This document shows, one piece after another, positions 7,331 through 51,110 of a DNA stretch of 64,000 bases (within the stretch, counting starts at the first letter, position 1; each line of letters opens with the position of its first letter). A model generated the notes under the pieces. That model did no database searches. It was not told where the DNA came from and saw only the letters and a program-made list of their open reading frames with translations. Source of the DNA: a virus; IMG/VR virus record IMGVR_UViG_3300009296_000199, one strand, 5' to 3'. The position numbers and the translations under genes were made by a program.

Positions 7331-7848
7331 TGGACATGGATACGACCGAGAAGCTCCGTGTAGCTAAGGCTCGAATGCGGGAGGCCTGCATTCACGCGGC
7401 GCTGGCGAATACGCCCGCGTCCGTGCGGGTTATCCGCATCCGGAGGACCCTGTCGGGCCGGGCCTATAGCCCAGAGGAGATCGCGGTGCCGAGGCCGATC
7501 ACCCGCCGGGCCATCCACGTATTCCTCCACGAGTGCGCCCACGTCGCCCTGGGGCACGTCGGAGCCAACAAAGCCGCCCAGTTCGGGCCGACGTTGCCCC
7601 ACGTGGGGCCAGGGCCAGTCCGGGCGGCCCCAAGGCCCAAGTACGCCCGCAAGCCGCGACACGTAGAGGAGTACGAGGCCGAGCGATGGGCCTTTGACCG
7701 TATGCGGGAGTCCGGCATCCCCGTGCCACGGAAGTCACTGCGGCGGGCCAAGAGCTATGTGGCCTATAAGATCCGACAGGCCCGGCGGCGCGGGGCCAAG
7801 ACCGTAGACCGTGAGGCCCTCCGGTGGGCCGGGGAGGCGACGCCATGA
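7327..7848 (+). CDS. HExxH zinc metallopeptidase-like protein (ImmA/IrrE-like)
   Basis: FLHECAHVALGH plus downstream EYEAERWA; ATGA overlaps on both sides. Confidence 0.7.
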   Translation: MMDMDTTEKLRVAKARMREACIHAALANTPASVRVIRIRRTLSGRAYSPEEIAVPRPITRRAIHVFLHECAHVALGHVGANKAAQFGPTLPHVGPGPVRAAPRPKYARKPRHVEEYEAERWAFDRMRESGIPVPRKSLRRAKSYVAYKIRQARRRGAKTVDREALRWAGEATP

Positions 7849-8729
7849 CCCAGGATGCCATGCTGGACGGATTCTTGCAGCACCTGCGGGTGGAGCGGGG
7901 GCTCGCCCCCAACACCTGCCTGTCCTACGGGTATCAGCTGGGGGCCTACGTCGCCTTCCTGCGGGCCAGAGGCCAGGAGCCGGCCACGGCAACACGGGAT
8001 GACGTGATAGCCTACCTCGAACGGCGCAAAGGCGACGGCCTCAGGTCGGCGTCGCTGTTCATAGCTGCGATGGCCGTGAGGCAGTTCCATCGTCACCTGG
8101 CTCAAACTGGTTGCGCCTCGGCCGACCCGACCGCCGGTATGCGCCTTCCCCGGTTCAAACAGCGAATCCCGAAACCGTTGGACGCGGAGGGTATGGACCG
8201 GCTGCTTCGCCCACCCGTGGGGGCCACGTTCTCGGTCCTGCGCGACCACGCCATGCTCGAAGCCATGTATGCCACGGGGATGCGGGTCTCGGAGCTCGTG
8301 GGCCTCCGGTTGGGACAGGTGGACCTGGGAGCGGGCTTGGCGCGTCCTATGGGCAAAGGCTCCAAGGAACGCATCGTCCCTTTTGGGGCCCGCGCGGTGA
8401 TCGCCCTACGTCGCTACCTCGCCGCCCGCGCGGCCCGCTTCCCGGCCGCTCCGGACGTCGTATTCCTCAACACCTGGGGCCGGGGGCTCACGCGAAGCGG
8501 CTTCGGCTGGCGGCTTGCGACCGCGGCGCGCCGAGCAGGGATATCGGGACGGCTGACGCCGCACCAGATCCGACATAGCTGTGCGACCCATATGCTGGAG
8601 GGCGGGGCCGATATCCGCATAGTCCAGGAGATGCTGGGGCACGCGAGTATCACGACCACCCAAATTTACACCCATGTCTCGGCCAACCTGATGCGGGAGA
8701 CCTGTCGGAAGGCGCACCCGCGATTCTAA
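7845..8729 (+). CDS. xerD: XerD-like tyrosine recombinase
   Basis: SAM-like N-terminus (LRVERGLAPNT), ATGMRVSEL, GKGSKERIVP, PHQIRHSCATH, LGHASITTTQIYTH: full R-K-H-R-H-Y set. Confidence 0.9.
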   Translation: MTQDAMLDGFLQHLRVERGLAPNTCLSYGYQLGAYVAFLRARGQEPATATRDDVIAYLERRKGDGLRSASLFIAAMAVRQFHRHLAQTGCASADPTAGMRLPRFKQRIPKPLDAEGMDRLLRPPVGATFSVLRDHAMLEAMYATGMRVSELVGLRLGQVDLGAGLARPMGKGSKERIVPFGARAVIALRRYLAARAARFPAAPDVVFLNTWGRGLTRSGFGWRLATAARRAGISGRLTPHQIRHSCATHMLEGGADIRIVQEMLGHASITTTQIYTHVSANLMRETCRKAHPRF

Positions 8730-41104: not shown

Positions 41105-42139
41105 TTACCCCTGCTGGAGAGCCAGGGCCACCCTGAGCTTGCGCTCAGGTGTCAGGCTCTCGAATTGCTTCCTCACGTCGTCTTGCTCGACGTCCGGCTG
41201 GACGAGTCCCTTGCGGAGCGTCGGGATCGCCTTGAGGGCGGCCTCGACCTGCCGGGCCACCTCGCCCGAAATCATCTTGCTGAGCTCATCGCGGCCCACC
41301 ATCTTGGGGGCGGGCTGAGGCGCGACCGCGGGCGGCGCGGGTGCAGGCTCAGCCGCCAGGATCGCCTTGACCTGCTCGGCCAGCGGTCCGGCCTGGCCGC
41401 CCAGCGCAGCGATCTTGTCTAAGATCACGCGGGCGGACTCCGGCTTGGGCGGCGCGGACTTTGAAACTTCCGCCGGCTGCGGAGCGACTTCCGGCTTGGC
41501 GGCCTCGGGCTTCGGTGCCTCGGCGGCCGGTGCTGCGGACTGGGGAGGGTCTCCGGCCTCGGGCCGTAGCTCCTCGATGACGACTTGTTCCTCGGGCATG
41601 TGGATTCCTCCTTGCGGCTTTTGATCGTTGGCTTCGAGAGCCTTCGAGACGTACCACCCGACGGCGCGGGCCTCCGGGTTGGCGGGGACCGAGACCACGG
41701 ACACTTCGACGAGCGTCATCTTCTTGATGACGTTGACCGTCCGGTTGAGCTCGGGCATGAACTTGCGCTCGCGTTCGAGCACCTGGCCGCGGATCGAAAA
41801 CTTGTTGAGTACGCCCTCCTTGATCTTCTGGATGATCTCTCCTTCGGTCTTGGAGATGAGGGCGTCGATGAGAAGGCCGTTGCGGTCGAAATTGACCTTG
41901 GTGACGCGGCCGATGGGTCGCTTGAAATCGTGGTTGAGAAGGACCGTGGAGTTCTTGATGAGGTCCGCTGCCGAGTCGGCCAGGGCTTCCTCGGTGATCA
42001 CGTCGCCCTGGAGGTCGAAGTCGGTGGTGGCGGCGTAGCCCACGATGTGGAACTCGCCGTTCTCCTCCACAGCCTTGAGCAGGCTGATGGGAAAATCGAA
42101 GGGCACCGCCCGCTCCGCGACCGCCGTCATGTTTTCCAT
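41105..42139 (-). CDS. prohead protease with C-terminal scaffold region
   Basis: IVGYAAT..DLQGDVI, LLNHD..PIG, LNKFSIRG, LVEVSVVSVPANPEA, followed by a Pro/Ala-rich linker and helical end. Confidence 0.9.
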   Translation of the reverse strand: MENMTAVAERAVPFDFPISLLKAVEENGEFHIVGYAATTDFDLQGDVITEEALADSAADLIKNSTVLLNHDFKRPIGRVTKVNFDRNGLLIDALISKTEGEIIQKIKEGVLNKFSIRGQVLERERKFMPELNRTVNVIKKMTLVEVSVVSVPANPEARAVGWYVSKALEANDQKPQGGIHMPEEQVVIEELRPEAGDPPQSAAPAAEAPKPEAAKPEVAPQPAEVSKSAPPKPESARVILDKIAALGGQAGPLAEQVKAILAAEPAPAPPAVAPQPAPKMVGRDELSKMISGEVARQVEAALKAIPTLRKGLVQPDVEQDDVRKQFESLTPERKLRVALALQQG

Positions 42140-42434: not shown

Positions 42435-42460
42435 GTCCATAAACAGTCAAACTGTTGACA
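42435..42460. promoter_or_regulatory. 26-bp repeated operator, copy 2
   Basis: GTCCATAAACAGTCAAACTGTTGACA; 25/26 identical to 51085-51110; contains AACAGT-N3-ACTGTT. Confidence 0.7.
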
Positions 42461-42569
42461 CTCCGACGAGGTTTTGGCGTGTGTCCCAGACAAAGAGGTA
42501 AAATCATGATTCGCGATCATGCATGGGGCACTGCACGACAGCCAAGATGACTGGTTCGGATTGTGCCCG

Positions 42570-42603
42570 TGCGGCAGGCATCCGGCTCATCGTAGCGTTG
42601 GCC
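42570..42603 (+). other. partial attC site (3' half)
   Basis: CGGCTCATCGTAGC-GTTGGCC parallels the 3' arm CGCTCATCCATCC-GTTAGGC of the next attC; no matching 5' arm. Confidence 0.5.
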
Positions 42604-42610
42604 AATCGAT

Positions 42611-43087
42611 ATGGAGCTAATGAAGAAATTCAAGGAAATCGTTGAGCACCTCCAGTGGTGGTGGGCACTGATAATCGCCATCCCCGGAGCGACTGCTTAC
42701 TGGGCCTACGTCGGGAAAATTCCGGGTCCAATCATATTGACAATAGTGCTTCTGGTCGCGGCCTCTGTGTTTCTGATTGTCGTCCTCTTCAATTACTGCA
42801 AAAACCCGCCTCCAATTGTTGGCCCATCCTTTACGCACGGGGGAGTGAAATGGACCCCAGTCCTGTACAACGCTGGAAAACCAACCGCAACGATTCAGGT
42901 TGGTGATCCATTGTGCTTGGAATGCGGGGCGCCACTTTTCGTCAAGAATGCTAGGACTGCCGAGTGCCCAACAGAAGCGTGCAAGCAGGAAGTGTATTCC
43001 TTCCAAGACTCAATCGCTGACACGAAAGAAAAGGCCAGAAGGGATGCCATTGGCAGAAGTGGCAGAAAAGAATTGAAATTTGGATGA
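42611..43087 (+). CDS. cassette gene 1: two-TM membrane protein with Zn ribbon
   Basis: Antisense to the phage operon, AT-richer; two hydrophobic segments, CLEC..CPTEAC; stop 2 nt before attC. Confidence 0.75.
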   Translation: MELMKKFKEIVEHLQWWWALIIAIPGATAYWAYVGKIPGPIILTIVLLVAASVFLIVVLFNYCKNPPPIVGPSFTHGGVKWTPVLYNAGKPTATIQVGDPLCLECGAPLFVKNARTAECPTEACKQEVYSFQDSIADTKEKARRDAIGRSGRKELKFG

Positions 43088-43089
43088 TG

Positions 43090-43194
43090 GCTTAACGGAT
43101 TGAGCGGACGGGCGCATGGAGAGAATTAGGAAAACCTGGGTGGACTCGCCGCGGCTGCTTGAAAGTGCGCCCGCCGCTCATCCATCCGTTAGGC
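43090..43194 (+). other. integron attC recombination site
   Basis: GCTTAAC (RYYYAAC) ... GTTAGGC (GTTRRRY); arms GAGCGG-A-CGGGCGCA / TGCGCCCG-CCGCTC with an unpaired base at the usual position. Confidence 0.85.
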
Positions 43195-43207
43195 ACACAG
43201 GATTTAA

Positions 43208-43795
43208 ATGAAGAGGAGCGCGATAGTAGATGCCGACGATTTGGCAACCGAATTGCACAAAGAAATCACTCGTTCCGAATTGGCATTGGCGTTTCGCAGG
43301 CTTGTTCTAACTCCACTACATACGAACACTTCGTTTCAGGCCGATTGTCGTGGGGCCTACAATCACATGGCAGTATCGACACTCAACTTGGCCTTCATAA
43401 CAATTGCGCGCTTGTTCGACCGGCCAAAAGGACGCCACTCTATCACCCTTCAATTCCTAATTGAGCGAATCAGAGATTTGTCGGCCAACAACGCGCGAAT
43501 AAATTCCGATGCCGAGAAGCATCTCCAAACGATAACGGATGTGCGTCTCAAGCTGTCACACCTGCGGAACAACGCAATTGCTCACAGGAATATTACCGAC
43601 GATGTGAGTCCTGTTTCATGGGATCTTCTCGAAGAAGTTCTAGACGACGCTCGGAAGATATTTGATTGGTGTGGAAGTGAGCGGGGACAAGCGTATTCAT
43701 ACTCCACCCACTTGCGAGGTTATAGAGGGGACTGCAGGCGATTGCTTGAGGCATTGGTTAATAAAGCGCCTCAGCCGGGGCCGAATTGTGCCTAA
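43208..43795 (+). CDS. cassette gene 2: HEPN-domain (AbiU2-like) protein
   Basis: All-helical; ITIARLFD..HSITL; LRNNAIAH (R-x5-H). Its stop TAA is part of the attC core GCCTAAC. Confidence 0.75.
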   Translation: MKRSAIVDADDLATELHKEITRSELALAFRRLVLTPLHTNTSFQADCRGAYNHMAVSTLNLAFITIARLFDRPKGRHSITLQFLIERIRDLSANNARINSDAEKHLQTITDVRLKLSHLRNNAIAHRNITDDVSPVSWDLLEEVLDDARKIFDWCGSERGQAYSYSTHLRGYRGDCRRLLEALVNKAPQPGPNCA

Positions 43796-43881
43796 CCATC
43801 GGATAGAGCCGCCGGGCGCCCTAGAGGAGCGCCAATATCCGCGGCGGCAGATCCTCAGCATTATGAATCTTATGGCGCGCG
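43790..43881 (+). other. truncated attC site
   Basis: GCCTAAC-CATC-GGATAGAGCCG-C-CGGGCGCC 5' arm is intact; the 3' arm stops after GGCGC at the stop codon of the phage methylase gene. Confidence 0.65.
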
Positions 43882-46290
43882 CTACTGAGCGTCGGCGTTG
43901 AGTATCATTCCACCGGTGGCGCATGCGATATTTTTCTCAACGTATAGATCACCCGGCTTGAGCGCGTAGTTCGCAACCAATAGCTCGTATTCCTTCCTCG
44001 CCCCGCCGAGTTGGTGCGAGCCGGTGTGCAGCGTTTTGATCCGGTAGGTCTTGAAGCCCTTGAAGAGCTTGGCCTTCTCGAGCTCGTAGCTCAGGAGGAA
44101 CTGACCCTTGATGCTCTTGAGGACCGGCATCATGTCCTCTTCTTTGAAGAACTTCGCCCCGAACTTTCCCTTCTCTTTTGGCCAGTGCAGCGGGTAGGGC
44201 GGGTCAAGGTAAAAGAACGCGTTGGGTCCGTCGTACTCCTTGACCACGTCCTTCCAGTCCCAGGAGTGAAGCTTGACCCCTTGGAGCCGCTCCTGGATTT
44301 TGGGCAGCTTATCGACCAATCGAATGTGGGCTCCGATACCGGTCGAGCCGTTAGGCCGCATACCTTCCCACACGTCCGTCCGGCCCCAATACTGGGCCTT
44401 GTTCAGGTAGGCGAAGCGATAGAACCGCTCGCGGAATGTCCGAGGCTTTAGCTCGAAGAGCTTCTTGGCCTGGGGTCGGGTGATGATCCAGTTTTGTTTC
44501 TTGAGCCAATCCAAATCCTCGGGCGTCATGCCCTTGATGAAACGGTAGGCCCAGATCAGGTCCGCGTTGACATCGTTGATCGCCTCAAGATCCGAGCGTT
44601 TCTTGTGGAAAAGCACCTGCGCCCCGCCGGCGAATCCCTCGATATAGCTCTTGTGCTCCGGCATGAGGCGGACGATTTTTTTGCACATGCGATACTTGCC
44701 GCCGGGGCTCTTGAAGGCACCCTGGACCTTCTCGACCTCGTCATCGTCGAGATGATTGAACAGCGGCCGGGCCTCGGCCTCCAGCCCCTCCGGTTCGGCC
44801 TCGAGTTCTTTCTCGATGTAGAGGTGGAGCGGCTTGAGCGGAAACTTTGAAACGAGGAGCTCTGTGATCCACTCCTGGTTACCGCCCGCTCCCTTCATCT
44901 GATTGCGCCGCTTGACCTTGTAGACGTTCCAGCTCTTCATGGCCCCTGCCATCTCCTTAGGGTAGGACACGATCCAGTTGGCCTTGAGGCCCTTGATCGC
45001 TTTCAGGAAATCCTCGTGCTTGAATCCGAAGTCGAAGAGGTTGAATTTGCCGGGATACGGCGGGTCCATGTAGAAGAACGTCTCGGGGCCGTCGTGCTCT
45101 TTGAGGACGTCGAGGTAGTCCTTATTGCTGACCGCGACGTTCTTGAGCCGCGCCTGCGCCCGCTCGATGTTGGCCGGGAAATCGATGCGGACCCCGGCGT
45201 TGGCGGGGTTGAACGAGCCGCCGCGCATCTTGCCGTAAGATGAGCGGGTCAGATAGAAGGATTTGTAGAAGCGGTCCCGATCACTCTCGGGCTTGAGCTC
45301 CTTGAGCCGCTCGTGGGTCTCCTTGCGGATCGTCCACTCGCGCTTGGCCAGGGCGGCCCGGTCTTCCGGGGAGTGGTCCCGGATGAAGCGGTGCATGAAG
45401 GCAATCTCCGGATCGCGGTCGTTGAGAGCCTCCTGTGGCGAGGGGTCCTTGGCGTAGAGAACGGCTGCCCCGCCCGCGAAGGGCTCAACGTAGAGTTTGT
45501 GGTAGGGGATGTATGAGACGATCTTGTGCGCCAGTGCCCGCTTGCCGCCGTAGGAGCCGAACGCCGCGCGCACACCCTTGAGCAATTCCTCTGCGGCGTC
45601 GCCCTCGTACAGGGCTCCGGCCGTCCGGGCGGCCTTGGCCGCCTCACCCACCGTCATAGGTTTGCCGCGGCCGGCGACGCTGGAAATCCTTGATGCCGAG
45701 ACGGAGATCGCCGTCGTCCCATCCGCCCGCTTGGAGAGGGCCATACCGTCGCACTCGACTTCGACGATGTCGCCCGCGTCCGACTTGGCCTCGGACGATT
45801 CGACCAGGCCTGCCTCCAGGAATAATCTTCCCTGGACAGAACGGACCAGTTCCGTCGCCTTCATGTTCTGGAAGTCCAGGCCGAAGTAGATATCGGCGGT
45901 GTCTGGAACTCGGCCCTCGTCGACCCGGGTGACCACGGCGCGGATAACGAAAGCTGGGGGGCGGTCGAAGGCGGCCAGCGGGTCCTCGGGCTCGCCGTCC
46001 GTGACCGAGCGGAGCAGCGGCTGGGTCTGCGCCTCCAACTCGTCATTGATCGCGTGATGGAAGGCGCGGCTGCTCAACTCGCGGCGCGCGGCCGCGTGAA
46101 GCTCCAGAAGCTCCGGGTAGTCCCAGTCCTTGCCGTTCTCGAACACTTTGTGCCCGGAGCGCTTCATCTCCCAGGCGCGGTGCAGGATGAAGTCCAGGGA
46201 CAGAAGCTCCTGATCGGAAAGTTTCGCGGGGTCCGACCGGAACAGGCTTCCAAAGTCGGCCAGGTTGATCTTTACGGTTTCCATGGTCAT
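43882..46290 (-). CDS. head-operon protein with two tandem D12-class adenine methyltransferase domains
   Basis: Start ATG 46290 (GAGGAG RBS, ATGA overlap with the portal stop). Domain 1 SYGGK/YVEPFAGG/YMDPPY; domain 2 SPGGK/YIEGFAGG/YLDPPY; about 235-aa non-methylase N-terminus. Confidence 0.9.
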   Translation of the reverse strand: MTMETVKINLADFGSLFRSDPAKLSDQELLSLDFILHRAWEMKRSGHKVFENGKDWDYPELLELHAAARRELSSRAFHHAINDELEAQTQPLLRSVTDGEPEDPLAAFDRPPAFVIRAVVTRVDEGRVPDTADIYFGLDFQNMKATELVRSVQGRLFLEAGLVESSEAKSDAGDIVEVECDGMALSKRADGTTAISVSASRISSVAGRGKPMTVGEAAKAARTAGALYEGDAAEELLKGVRAAFGSYGGKRALAHKIVSYIPYHKLYVEPFAGGAAVLYAKDPSPQEALNDRDPEIAFMHRFIRDHSPEDRAALAKREWTIRKETHERLKELKPESDRDRFYKSFYLTRSSYGKMRGGSFNPANAGVRIDFPANIERAQARLKNVAVSNKDYLDVLKEHDGPETFFYMDPPYPGKFNLFDFGFKHEDFLKAIKGLKANWIVSYPKEMAGAMKSWNVYKVKRRNQMKGAGGNQEWITELLVSKFPLKPLHLYIEKELEAEPEGLEAEARPLFNHLDDDEVEKVQGAFKSPGGKYRMCKKIVRLMPEHKSYIEGFAGGAQVLFHKKRSDLEAINDVNADLIWAYRFIKGMTPEDLDWLKKQNWIITRPQAKKLFELKPRTFRERFYRFAYLNKAQYWGRTDVWEGMRPNGSTGIGAHIRLVDKLPKIQERLQGVKLHSWDWKDVVKEYDGPNAFFYLDPPYPLHWPKEKGKFGAKFFKEEDMMPVLKSIKGQFLLSYELEKAKLFKGFKTYRIKTLHTGSHQLGGARKEYELLVANYALKPGDLYVEKNIACATGGMILNADAQ

Positions 46291-48278
46291 CTCTCCTCGA
46301 GGACGGTAACCCACGTACATCTGCAATTTGGATGGATTGGAATCGTCCCCGACACATCGTCGATGGACATGATACGGCCCAGCTTCTCCCCGGGCATGAT
46401 CTCGGCTGCATCCACGCAGAGAGGACAAGCGTCCGATGCCAGCAAAAATTGGACACGATCTACATCGGCTTGCTTCAACGCATCCAGGTTGCCCTCGTTG
46501 TAGGCGCGGTTGGCTTCGGTGCGGGCGATCATCTCGGACAAGGTCGATCGGTCGAGCCGACGGGTTCCGCCGACGCGCAGCACGTTGCCCGCATCGTCCA
46601 AGACCGGCTTCACTGTGAATGTTCCTGGCGAGTCCAACTGCTCCTCGATTCGGCGCATGAGCTGGGGGATTGTCTCATTGGCGGCCACGCCATCGATCAG
46701 GGCCTGACGGAGCCCCGCCTTGAGGGACTCCGAGACATTGGTAGCCACGGACAGAGCGTTGCTTCGAATCTTCTCCTGGAGTGCCAAGCTCGGCTCATCT
46801 ACGTCCTTGAGCCCGTTGCGACGGGCCGAGAGCGCCAGGCCCTTGCGTGCGGACTCCAGCGTGAATCCCTGCACGACCCTGGCGATCTTGTCCTTGTCGA
46901 TGAGTTCGAGCAGGACCTCCAGGTCATCGAGCTGCTTTGTGGCCTCGCCGCCCAGGGCGGGGAGCCCGGCGGCCATCGCGGCTTTGATCTCGCGGAAGAG
47001 CCGTTCCATGGCCCGCGCGAAACGTTCCTCGATCTCCACGGCCTCGCGGCTTGAAGCCACGATGGCCTTAGAGAGGGCCATGCCCTTTTGGAGTTCCGGC
47101 ATCCTGGGAGCCACCATCCGGCGCACCTCCTCGGCTGTGAACACGCCGTTCTGGAGGTAGACGTTGAATATCTCCGCCTGGTCCTTCTCATCGATAGCCC
47201 GCTTGTTAAACTGGAAGGACCAATCTGAGATCCCGAAACCTTTCCGGATCACATGCTTGTTGATCTTCTCGGCCACCCGCATCTGGAAGGGGAGGATGGT
47301 CTCATCGTAAAAGGTCTGTGTCTGGTGCTCCCCGGTGCCCGACCCGATGTTGCCTGTGTCGATGATCGAGACTTTGCTGGGCGGCACACCATAGACGGCC
47401 AGAATCTCATTGCGGGTGAACGATCTAAGTTCCAGGAACTCCATGTCCTTCTGGTTGACGCCGATCTGCTTAAAATCAATGTCGCCCTCCATGACCAGGT
47501 CCGAGTGAGCTGTATCTGGATTCTTGGCGCGGGCGGCCATGTACTCTCGGTTGCGCTCCACCTGCTCAGGGGTGGCGTCCTTCATGATGAACGCGCCGCG
47601 GATTTTGGCGCCATTTAAAAAGAACGATCTGTTATATACCTGTGCGAACTTGTCCACGGTGATCGGCAGGATGAGCGAAGCCAGCGGGGAAAGGCCGTAG
47701 AGGGTAGCCCCCTTGGTTCCCAGCTTGAAGTGGATCACTTCCCTGGGTTCGAATTCGACCCTTCCCGTCTGGTTCCGCGTCGTAGCAAAGCGCGGGACCT
47801 GGACGTAACCCGTAATCCCGCCGTGCTCGTCCGCCTTGACCCGTATCGTAGTTGCGTCGAGGTTCCACAACTCGCGCGGCTTGCCGTCCGGGCCGGGGAC
47901 CAGTTCTAGGAAGGCGTTACCGAAGACGTAGACATCCCGCGCCAGGTCGTCGAGTATCTCCAGCAGGGTGTCGTTGGGATTGCAGTTGCCGAAGAACTCC
48001 TGGAGGAGCTCGGCGTTCTTGGGGTCCGCGTCAGGCTTGGCGGGGACCAAGCTGTAACCCCTGGCCGTGACCGCCTTGCAGATGACGCTCACCACGGCCC
48101 GGACCCAGGAGGTCTGCTCGTACATCTGATTGAAAATCTCAAAATCGATATCCGGCAGGATGCCCTCGTCAAACGAGATGCCCGCCGCGTGGGAGACCAC
48201 CTGCTTGGAGGATTTCTCAATCTCCTCGCGGATCACGCTTCCAAACAAGGTTTTGACGATCAACTCTTTTATTCCCAT
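46287..48278 (-). CDS. portal protein fused to MuF (phage Mu F-like) domain
   Basis: Portal motifs (YVFGNAF, EVIHFK, YGLSPLAS, EILAVYGVPP), then IARTEANRAYN..CPLC..PIHPNCRC. Confidence 0.9.
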   Translation of the reverse strand: MGIKELIVKTLFGSVIREEIEKSSKQVVSHAAGISFDEGILPDIDFEIFNQMYEQTSWVRAVVSVICKAVTARGYSLVPAKPDADPKNAELLQEFFGNCNPNDTLLEILDDLARDVYVFGNAFLELVPGPDGKPRELWNLDATTIRVKADEHGGITGYVQVPRFATTRNQTGRVEFEPREVIHFKLGTKGATLYGLSPLASLILPITVDKFAQVYNRSFFLNGAKIRGAFIMKDATPEQVERNREYMAARAKNPDTAHSDLVMEGDIDFKQIGVNQKDMEFLELRSFTRNEILAVYGVPPSKVSIIDTGNIGSGTGEHQTQTFYDETILPFQMRVAEKINKHVIRKGFGISDWSFQFNKRAIDEKDQAEIFNVYLQNGVFTAEEVRRMVAPRMPELQKGMALSKAIVASSREAVEIEERFARAMERLFREIKAAMAAGLPALGGEATKQLDDLEVLLELIDKDKIARVVQGFTLESARKGLALSARRNGLKDVDEPSLALQEKIRSNALSVATNVSESLKAGLRQALIDGVAANETIPQLMRRIEEQLDSPGTFTVKPVLDDAGNVLRVGGTRRLDRSTLSEMIARTEANRAYNEGNLDALKQADVDRVQFLLASDACPLCVDAAEIMPGEKLGRIMSIDDVSGTIPIHPNCRCTWVTVLEER

Positions 48279-51084: not shown

Positions 51085-51110
51085 GTCCATAAACAGTCAC
51101 ACTGTTGACA
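51085..51110. promoter_or_regulatory. 26-bp repeated operator, copy 1
   Basis: GTCCATAAACAGTCACACTGTTGACA; 4 nt from the first ATG of the packaging operon. Confidence 0.7.

Follow-up and report, generated by a model that had tools for sequence, protein, structure and literature searches.

Temperate phages have variable accessory (moron or defence) hotspots at fixed genome positions, as in P2 and P4. Integrons, attC site clusters that lack an integron integrase (CALINs) and fragments of sedentary chromosomal integrons have been published in phages, together with recombination assays, with examples in the Vibrio anguillarum temperate phage Va_90-11-286_p16 and in the virulent phages TJE1 and PH101 (Qi, Rajabal, Ghaly, Tetu and Gillings 2023, PMC9892861). 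Cassettes can also be inserted by attC × attG recombination at genome sites of GWT consensus, giving isolated cassettes and single attC sites lacking integron integrases (SALINs) (Loot et al., 10.1101/2022.09.11.507474), and integrons, whether mobile or chromosomal, are described as carrying anti-phage defence cassettes (Darracq et al., 10.1101/2024.07.02.601686, who do not mention AbiU in their main text; Kieffer et al., 10.1101/2024.07.02.601719). Here we analyse a 64,000-nucleotide (nt) stretch of viral DNA (IMG/VR record IMGVR_UViG_3300009296_000199; hereafter the window), in which two integron gene cassettes fill positions 42596-43859 of the + strand; the prophage that carries them is from an uncultured Elusimicrobiota bacterium of groundwater. 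This block is most probably a two-cassette piece of an Elusimicrobiota-type chromosomal integron array, and it is now fixed as accessory cargo where this temperate Elusimicrobiota phage has a variable slot.

Like the phages described by Qi et al., the window carries attC-bounded, co-oriented cassettes in a phage genome, with attC sites of the type found in the chromosomal integrons of the host lineage, and, as in their CALIN cases, the phage has no integron integrase of its own. Unlike those cases, the host is an uncultured member of the Elusimicrobiota, there are only two cassettes and one complete attC, and the locus is known from its sequence alone; the cassettes also sit in a defined slot between head-gene units, for which relatives with an empty slot are known, and include a recognisable abortive-infection gene. 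As in the insertions of Loot et al., the cassettes lie away from any integron platform, the last attC stops at its crossover point, where foreign DNA beginning (A)TT takes over, and expression would rely on a nearby resident promoter; however, the window has A in place of G before TT, its left junction is not a clean target-G|TT-cassette junction, and the target is a phage and not a chromosome. The block resembles the cassettes of Darracq et al. and Kieffer et al. in packing a small, single-gene, defence-type function (predicted, from a HEPN abortive-infection family), and differs in that the cassette has left the integron and rides in a prophage. Finally, the slot is like the P2/P4 hotspots in its conserved position between structural genes and its varied, often antisense, cargo or lack of cargo, but it is unlike them in that the cargo of two members of this phage family carries attC sites, and for this reason part of the slot content can be traced to the integron cassette pool.

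Results

The block consists of gene 1, a complete attC of 105 nt (the central attC), gene 2 and a second attC without its R' core, in that order (Table 1). A first-pass annotation, made by a model from the letters of the window, had described the same succession of gene, complete attC and gene, and the coordinates bore this out. Likewise, its description of the block as antisense and AT-richer agrees with what we found: both cassettes are antisense to the phage head genes, with the prohead protease and a small open reading frame (ORF) on one side and a D12 methyltransferase protein on the other, all on the - strand, and the GC content of the block is 0.518 vs 0.636 and 0.608 in its flanks. Its third observation, that cassette 2 begins with the reverse complement of its own inverse core, is exact, as GTTAGGCACA (43188-43197) is a perfect 10-nt reverse complement of TGTGCCTAAC (43787-43796). 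The stop codon of gene 1 lies 2 nt ahead of R'', while gene 2 has its TAA stop within the following R'' (GCCTAAC, 43790-43796). Over their overlap with the block, eight fetched contigs in phage context (L001-L006, L008 and L009) are 100% identical to the window, pieces of sequencing run X7 likewise match it exactly there, and the stretch is present at least in part in sequencing runs from six studies. The eight separate phage-context contigs and the runs from six studies rule out an assembly artefact. The window DNA gave no match in phage and plasmid collections.

In the central attC the R'' and R' cores (of the RYYYAAC and GTTRRRY type) are both present and complementary, and the site, folded as single-stranded DNA, folds far better than shuffled sequences (z -5.6 and -5.3). 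The R''-L'' arm contains two unpaired bases (T and A, top strand), and the strand preference of the site is clear. No Rfam family matches the attC sites of the window, and the family to which they belong was sought with a 20-nt pattern common to the central and right sites, run on species genomes. This pattern matched 60 species genomes, mostly as single chance matches, with clearly homologous whole sites in seven groundwater Elusimicrobia genomes. From such genomes we built a covariance model, R1, on 18 aligned Elusimicrobiota attC sites, none of them from the window, which stand in one-ORF-per-repeat arrays next to true intI genes. The 18-site alignment has compensatory changes at 7/16 stem pairs, two unpaired positions on the R''-L'' arm, and a core that begins CGTT in 18/18 sites. 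The first-pass annotation had named an attC covariance model as the check on 43090-43194; under R1, the + strand of this site reaches 62.9 bits (E 1.3e-18), with all 23 model pairs formed, and the opposite strand 24.3 bits. The site departs from its family in one respect, having 0 nt between R'' and L'' vs 3-4 nt in 18/18 training sites, with the 4-nt spacer of the other arm kept. Apart from the central and right sites, R1 found nothing in the window at E < 0.1, and across related phage loci, ~390 kb in all, a single further site passed this threshold, in a locus described below (L105).

The same attC family forms arrays beside true integron integrases in Elusimicrobiota. Sites nearly identical to the central attC (L030:5659-5769 and L051:5084-5194) lie in arrays beside intI, and L030 (= G001:C39 48001-56000) is a complete integron, with an intI (288-1556) of 448 bits against TIGR02249 (cut-off 265) and, after it and also on its strand, at least 10 attC sites of the family, each preceded by one ORF. 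Two further genomes repeat this arrangement on their intI contigs (L034/L081 and L048/L079), and intI scores above the cut-off in 4/5 genomes bearing the attC family. We also observed that the intI of L030, the one array examined for this, is co-oriented with its cassettes (the 'inverted integrase' layout), and that in three Elusimicrobiota integrons (L030 at ~1740-1756, L079 and L080) the junction after intI has the motif AAT(T/C)(A/C)(A/T)AAG|GTTRGMC, a candidate attI core. Among 300 sampled genomes of the phylum, 24 (~8%) carry intI above the NCBIfam cut-off, 11 carry the phage family and three carry both (Fisher one-sided p 0.049), and these three genomes place integron-bearing hosts within the range of the phage family. 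This co-occurrence was seen in the 300-genome sample only: five genomes with the attC family have no relative of the phage portal, and five genomes with related prophages have no intI at E <= 1e-40. Our literature search found no paper naming integrons together with Elusimicrobiota, which is not proof that there is none.

Within the 64-kb window itself neither a profile search nor tblastn with the L030 IntI found an intI, in agreement with the first-pass annotation, and the only tyrosine recombinase tested is XerD-like. This recombinase (7824-8729) was considered as an IntI and rejected, as it scores 108 bits against TIGR02249, vs a cut-off of 265, and the L030 IntI matches only its C-terminal catalytic end in tblastn. 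It scores 295 bits against NF001399, and its surroundings (4-8 kb) are a GC-rich patch that has low-GC regions with defence-like operons on either side. The window thus does not contain a complete integron, in the sense of intI and attI beside cassettes; what it contains, in CALIN terms, is one complete attC and one without R' (22.9 bits), with no intI in 64 kb.

Cassette 2 also occurs in other settings. The exact protein is encoded on 14 contigs, and in one (L007) an identical cassette 2 has a complete attC (...CTCAGC GTTCGGC) followed by a different, unrelated ORF. In the groundwater sequencing runs X8 and X12 there is a 91%-identical copy. Its homology to the window sets in precisely with the G of GTTAGGC (43188) and stops at 43782 or 43799, to one or the other side of R'' (43790-43796). 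The flank of this copy is attI-like, AATTCAAA|GTTAGGC, and in X8 the left flank ...CCAATTCAAA|GTTAGGC is similar to the junction behind intI in L030 (GAATTCAAAG|GTTGGCC), L079 and L080, which suggests that the X8 copy of the cassette comes first in an integron. On another contig (L010, logan SRR22388193_645244), a homologue with 83% protein identity lies between GTTAGGT and GCCTAAC. Since copies elsewhere are bounded at the canonical core points, cassette 2 is a mobile unit. The L010 homologue has no recognisable attC upstream and adjoins an unrelated divergent gene, and it is possibly an isolated cassette.

The two outer sites of the block are both defective, in different ways. The right site has R'' (GCCTAAC) and the L''/L' stem and ends with ...CTCAGC at 43859, after which ATTATGA replaces the GTTRRRY core, where L007 reads GTTCGGC; R-box pairing is lost on the bottom strand. 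R1 scores this site (43791-43866) at 22.9 bits (E 6e-5), and the complete L007 copy at 30.8 bits. The window and L007 first differ at 43860, which corresponds to the G of G|TT, and beyond the common TT at 43861-43862 their identity is gone. The first-pass annotation had taken this site to be cut in the middle; instead everything as far as the crossover point is there, and only the R' core is missing. The following 90 bp (43860-43949) either stem from old cargo or open a third cassette. A BLAST search of the two junction stretches of unassigned origin against all fetched loci gave nothing telling, and 43860-43949 had no match elsewhere.

On the left, cassette 1 begins with a G|TT boundary at 42596/42597. 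The half attC that had been proposed here stands in so far as an R' core (GTTGGCC) is preceded by an L'-like motif, the core and GGCTCA-N6-C being spaced as in the 3' arm of the attC family, but the site is undetected by R1, which with filters off reaches 6.3 bits at best, and it folds no better than shuffled sequences. On these grounds we rejected a complete but decayed attC. An attI was rejected as well, as the site is unlike the AATTCAAAG|GTT junctions of Elusimicrobiota integrons (L030, L079 and L080).

The product of cassette 2 is a HEPN protein of the AbiU2 family by its sequence, matching profile positions 40-192 of 193 in Pfam PF18734 (HEPN_AbiU2) with 37.8 bits (cut-off 26.8, E 1.8e-9) and carrying the HEPN (Rx4-6H) motif RNNAIAH; it has no match in PADLOC, PHROGs or NCBIfam. 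From its family membership, this protein is likely to be the useful product of the block, a predicted abortive-infection ribonuclease that would shield the lysogen from other phages. The gene 1 protein has two predicted N-terminal membrane helices and a zinc-ribbon-like C-terminal part (CxxC...CxxxxC). It has no match in Pfam, NCBIfam, PADLOC or PHROGs and only unnamed look-alikes in the Atlas; its sole protein-database match is itself, on 3 contigs, and short ~97%-identical pieces of the gene occur in sequencing run X11. A pattern scan of the species-genome collection found no relatives of either protein. Each gene has its own ribosome-binding site, and both cassettes are probably transcribed from the conserved leader of the slot. 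A TTGACA inside the neighbouring operator-like palindrome was considered as a cassette promoter element and rejected, lying 38 nt from TAAAAT.

The block occupies a variable phage accessory (moron) hotspot, which is empty or holds unrelated cargo in relatives. It is empty in L012, L013, L014, L092, L093 and L116, where the methyltransferase stop directly follows the palindrome, and in close relatives in sequencing runs X8 and X11. In these last, 42478/9 is joined to 43949/52 with only 38-40 nt between, and these junctions therefore define the cargo region as 42479-43949. Elsewhere the slot contains a chlorite-dismutase-like gene (L011, 11231-11797), one ORF (L125, 4197-4613), three ORFs of which one has a NOV_C match (L126, 2804-4641) or one ORF (L131, 4156-4692), all antisense.

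One further locus (L105, 1-2100 of Ga0265297_10045191), whose protease is 45% identical, holds in the same slot and orientation a pair of antisense ORFs without family matches (280 and 168 aa), and the second is followed by a 71-bit attC of the same family. L105 is a second, independent capture of an attC cassette in the slot, and the only such case, as the other 59 related phage loci that were scanned have no attC. Between the two L105 ORFs stands ACCTAAC-A-GTTCTGC, which may be a collapsed attC reduced to its cores. The first-pass annotation had called for related prophages to be compared for different cassettes at this locus, and the outcome is divided: there is other cargo in the slot, including the attC cassette of L105, but no alternative cassette at the central attC.

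Table 1. Positions of the cassette block, the slot edges and the neighbouring phage genes in the window
Feature	Position	Strand	Remarks
Cassette 1 gene	42611-43087	+	158 aa
Cassette 1 attC (central attC)	43090-43194	+	Complete, 105 nt; R'' GCTTAAC; L'' GGAT[T]GAGCGG[A]CGGGCG; L' CGCCCGCCGCTCATCC; R' GTTAGGC
Cassette 2 gene	43208-43795	+	195 aa
Cassette 2 attC without R' core	43790-43859	+	
Possible upstream attC remnant	42555-42602	+	L''-like CGGATTG, L'-like GGCTCA-N6-CGTT, R' GTTGGCC (42596-42602); by sequence likeness only
Stretch between attC end and conserved methyltransferase gene end	43860-43949		90 bp
Probable remnant ORF, 14 codons	42506-42550	+	ATG at 42506, stop at 42548-42550
Slot leader	42461-42505	+	Ribosome-binding site AAAGAGG; precedes different cargo in other phages
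Palindromic operator-like motif	42435-42460	.	GTCCATAAACAGTCAAACTGTTGACA; phage-side slot edge, not integron DNA
Small conserved phage ORF	42224-42403	-	59 aa; first gene of head unit; left slot flank; conserved in relatives
Prohead protease	41105-42139	-	
Head-module protein with two D12 adenine methyltransferase domains	43882-46428	-	Pfam PF02086, PADLOC MTase_II; right slot flank
Portal	46287-48278		Adjoins methyltransferase gene

The phage itself belongs with the same phylum as the attC family, because relatives of its prohead protease in the species-genome collection are in Elusimicrobia genomes in 9/9 cases. The slot separates two late transcription units, one of portal and methyltransferase and one of operator, small ORF, protease and capsid. 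The palindrome at its edge (~26 bp, GTCCAT-AAACAGT-N3/4-ACTGTT-) has been conserved in L011, L013, L014, L092-L094, L115-L117 and L131-L139 immediately upstream of the small head ORF, has a second copy in the window at 51085-51110, and is likely to be the binding site of a late regulator. It abuts a promoter-like site on the - strand, TGGACA-17-CAAAAT (42439-42411).

Homology of the leader that follows extends to 42468 in L131, to 42478/9 in the X8/X11 relatives and to 42504 in L011, with different cargo beyond. In L011 the same leader heads a 188-aa gene, and the 14-codon ORF of the window is probably the stump of an earlier cargo gene, which seems to have been replaced in this slot. At the other edge, the methyltransferase has a 17-aa C-terminal extension, KNIACATGGMILNADAQ (43882-43932), that is absent from the L131 homologue, which ends earlier. 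As this extension is encoded by unassigned DNA beside the end of the attC, the cargo insertion altered the end of the methyltransferase gene.

Discussion

The first-pass annotation had also supposed that the phage acquired a piece of a host integron array, and our data support this. The attC family of the block is arrayed beside true intI in Elusimicrobiota, the protease relatives are from this phylum throughout, cassette 2 is bounded exactly elsewhere, and close relatives of the phage have the slot empty. Several points weigh on the other side. R1 is biased towards the 20-nt, window-derived seed stretch, although its cores, structure and other arm, and likewise the intI context, do not depend on the window. 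The AbiU2 membership of cassette 2 is a single Pfam match (37.8 bits) with no PADLOC match, and a consensus scan found no promoter for the cassettes on the + strand of the leader. Finally, no clean cassette boundary marks the left end, and the crossover base on the right (43860) is A where G is expected.

These last two points bear on how the array piece came to be in the phage. The right end would be compatible with IntI joining an attC to a non-canonical site of the GWT type, and equally with 43860-43949 being the head of a third cassette captured by illegitimate recombination, whereas the left end is unlike the clean junction expected from insertion of a cassette circle. Because of the A at the crossover, either route of capture needs one extra mutation. 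It is a serious possibility, though one that we would put somewhat behind its opposite, that the array fragment was captured wholly by illegitimate recombination without IntI, the break at G|TT then reflecting no more than a different next cassette in L007. An L'-like remnant upstream of R' at the unclean left end, the A at the crossover and the 90 bp of unassigned DNA after it all fit such an event, and off-target homologous or illegitimate recombination is what Qi et al. propose for phage CALINs (PMC9892861). However, ATTATGA would be exceptional as the R' of a live array, given that every one of the 18 family cores begins CGTT, and insertion of cassettes by IntI at GWT sites in genomes is efficient experimentally (10.1101/2022.09.11.507474). 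This alternative concerns the route of capture only, and not the identity of the block.

The second question is whether the captured cassettes can still move. The first-pass annotation saw in the locus a prophage-borne landing pad, where the central attC could still gain and lose cassettes by means of a host IntI; the phage would then share the cassette pool of its host. We consider this improbable. It is true that the central attC is structurally complete, with both cores, all pairs and the two unpaired bases on the correct arm, that 3/11 genomes with the phage family carry intI, that the distant relative L105 has another attC cassette in the same slot, and that phage-borne attC sites recombine with IntI1 (PMC9892861). 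Nevertheless, the flanking sites are without R'' on the left and without R' on the right, the central site is without the 3-4-nt spacer of all its training sites, no intI is in view in the 64 kb, and attC sites are absent from the other related phage loci that were scanned, with the exception of L105. In addition, the eight phage-context contigs and the X7 pieces are identical to the window over the block, with no sign of turnover and no alternative cassette at the central attC. Excision by attC × attC recombination requires a complete site on either side, which neither cassette has.

We conclude that the block is most likely a fixed, domesticated fragment and the array frozen, as there is no intI in the window, the outer sites are defective and the fetched copies that overlap it all match the window exactly there. 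The central attC is probably an intact-looking relic, though recombination there is possible in principle. By contrast with the fixed fragment that we favour, it is a doubtful proposition that the central attC is functional and that the phage family regularly trades with the Elusimicrobiota integron pool, with cassettes entering the head-module slot by IntI, a picture to which the separate captures of the window and L105 might point. Were this so, the circular phage genome with its one working attC would act as a giant cassette that host IntI could insert at attI or attC, which would give the phage a second route to lysogeny and a means of moving cassettes between hosts.

That the block is not integron DNA at all, with hairpins that are phage terminators or attC-like host repeats beside two ordinary accessory genes, is hardly credible: the sites have no Rfam match and the left one is not significant, but the same repeat family stands in one-gene-per-repeat arrays directly beside integron integrases in several genomes, canonical cores, unpaired bases and covariation are all present, and cassette 2 copies elsewhere are bounded exactly at core sites.

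Phage-borne integron fragments are already known, and the window is a clean further example in a new lineage, the groundwater Elusimicrobiota; as such fragments are published, it opens no new question. Empty-slot relatives, relatives with other cargo and free-standing copies of one cassette all exist, and they allow the captured DNA to be delimited with a precision of a few bases. The case joins three things known separately, namely anti-phage integron cassettes, phages with integron parts, and fixed cargo slots in prophages.

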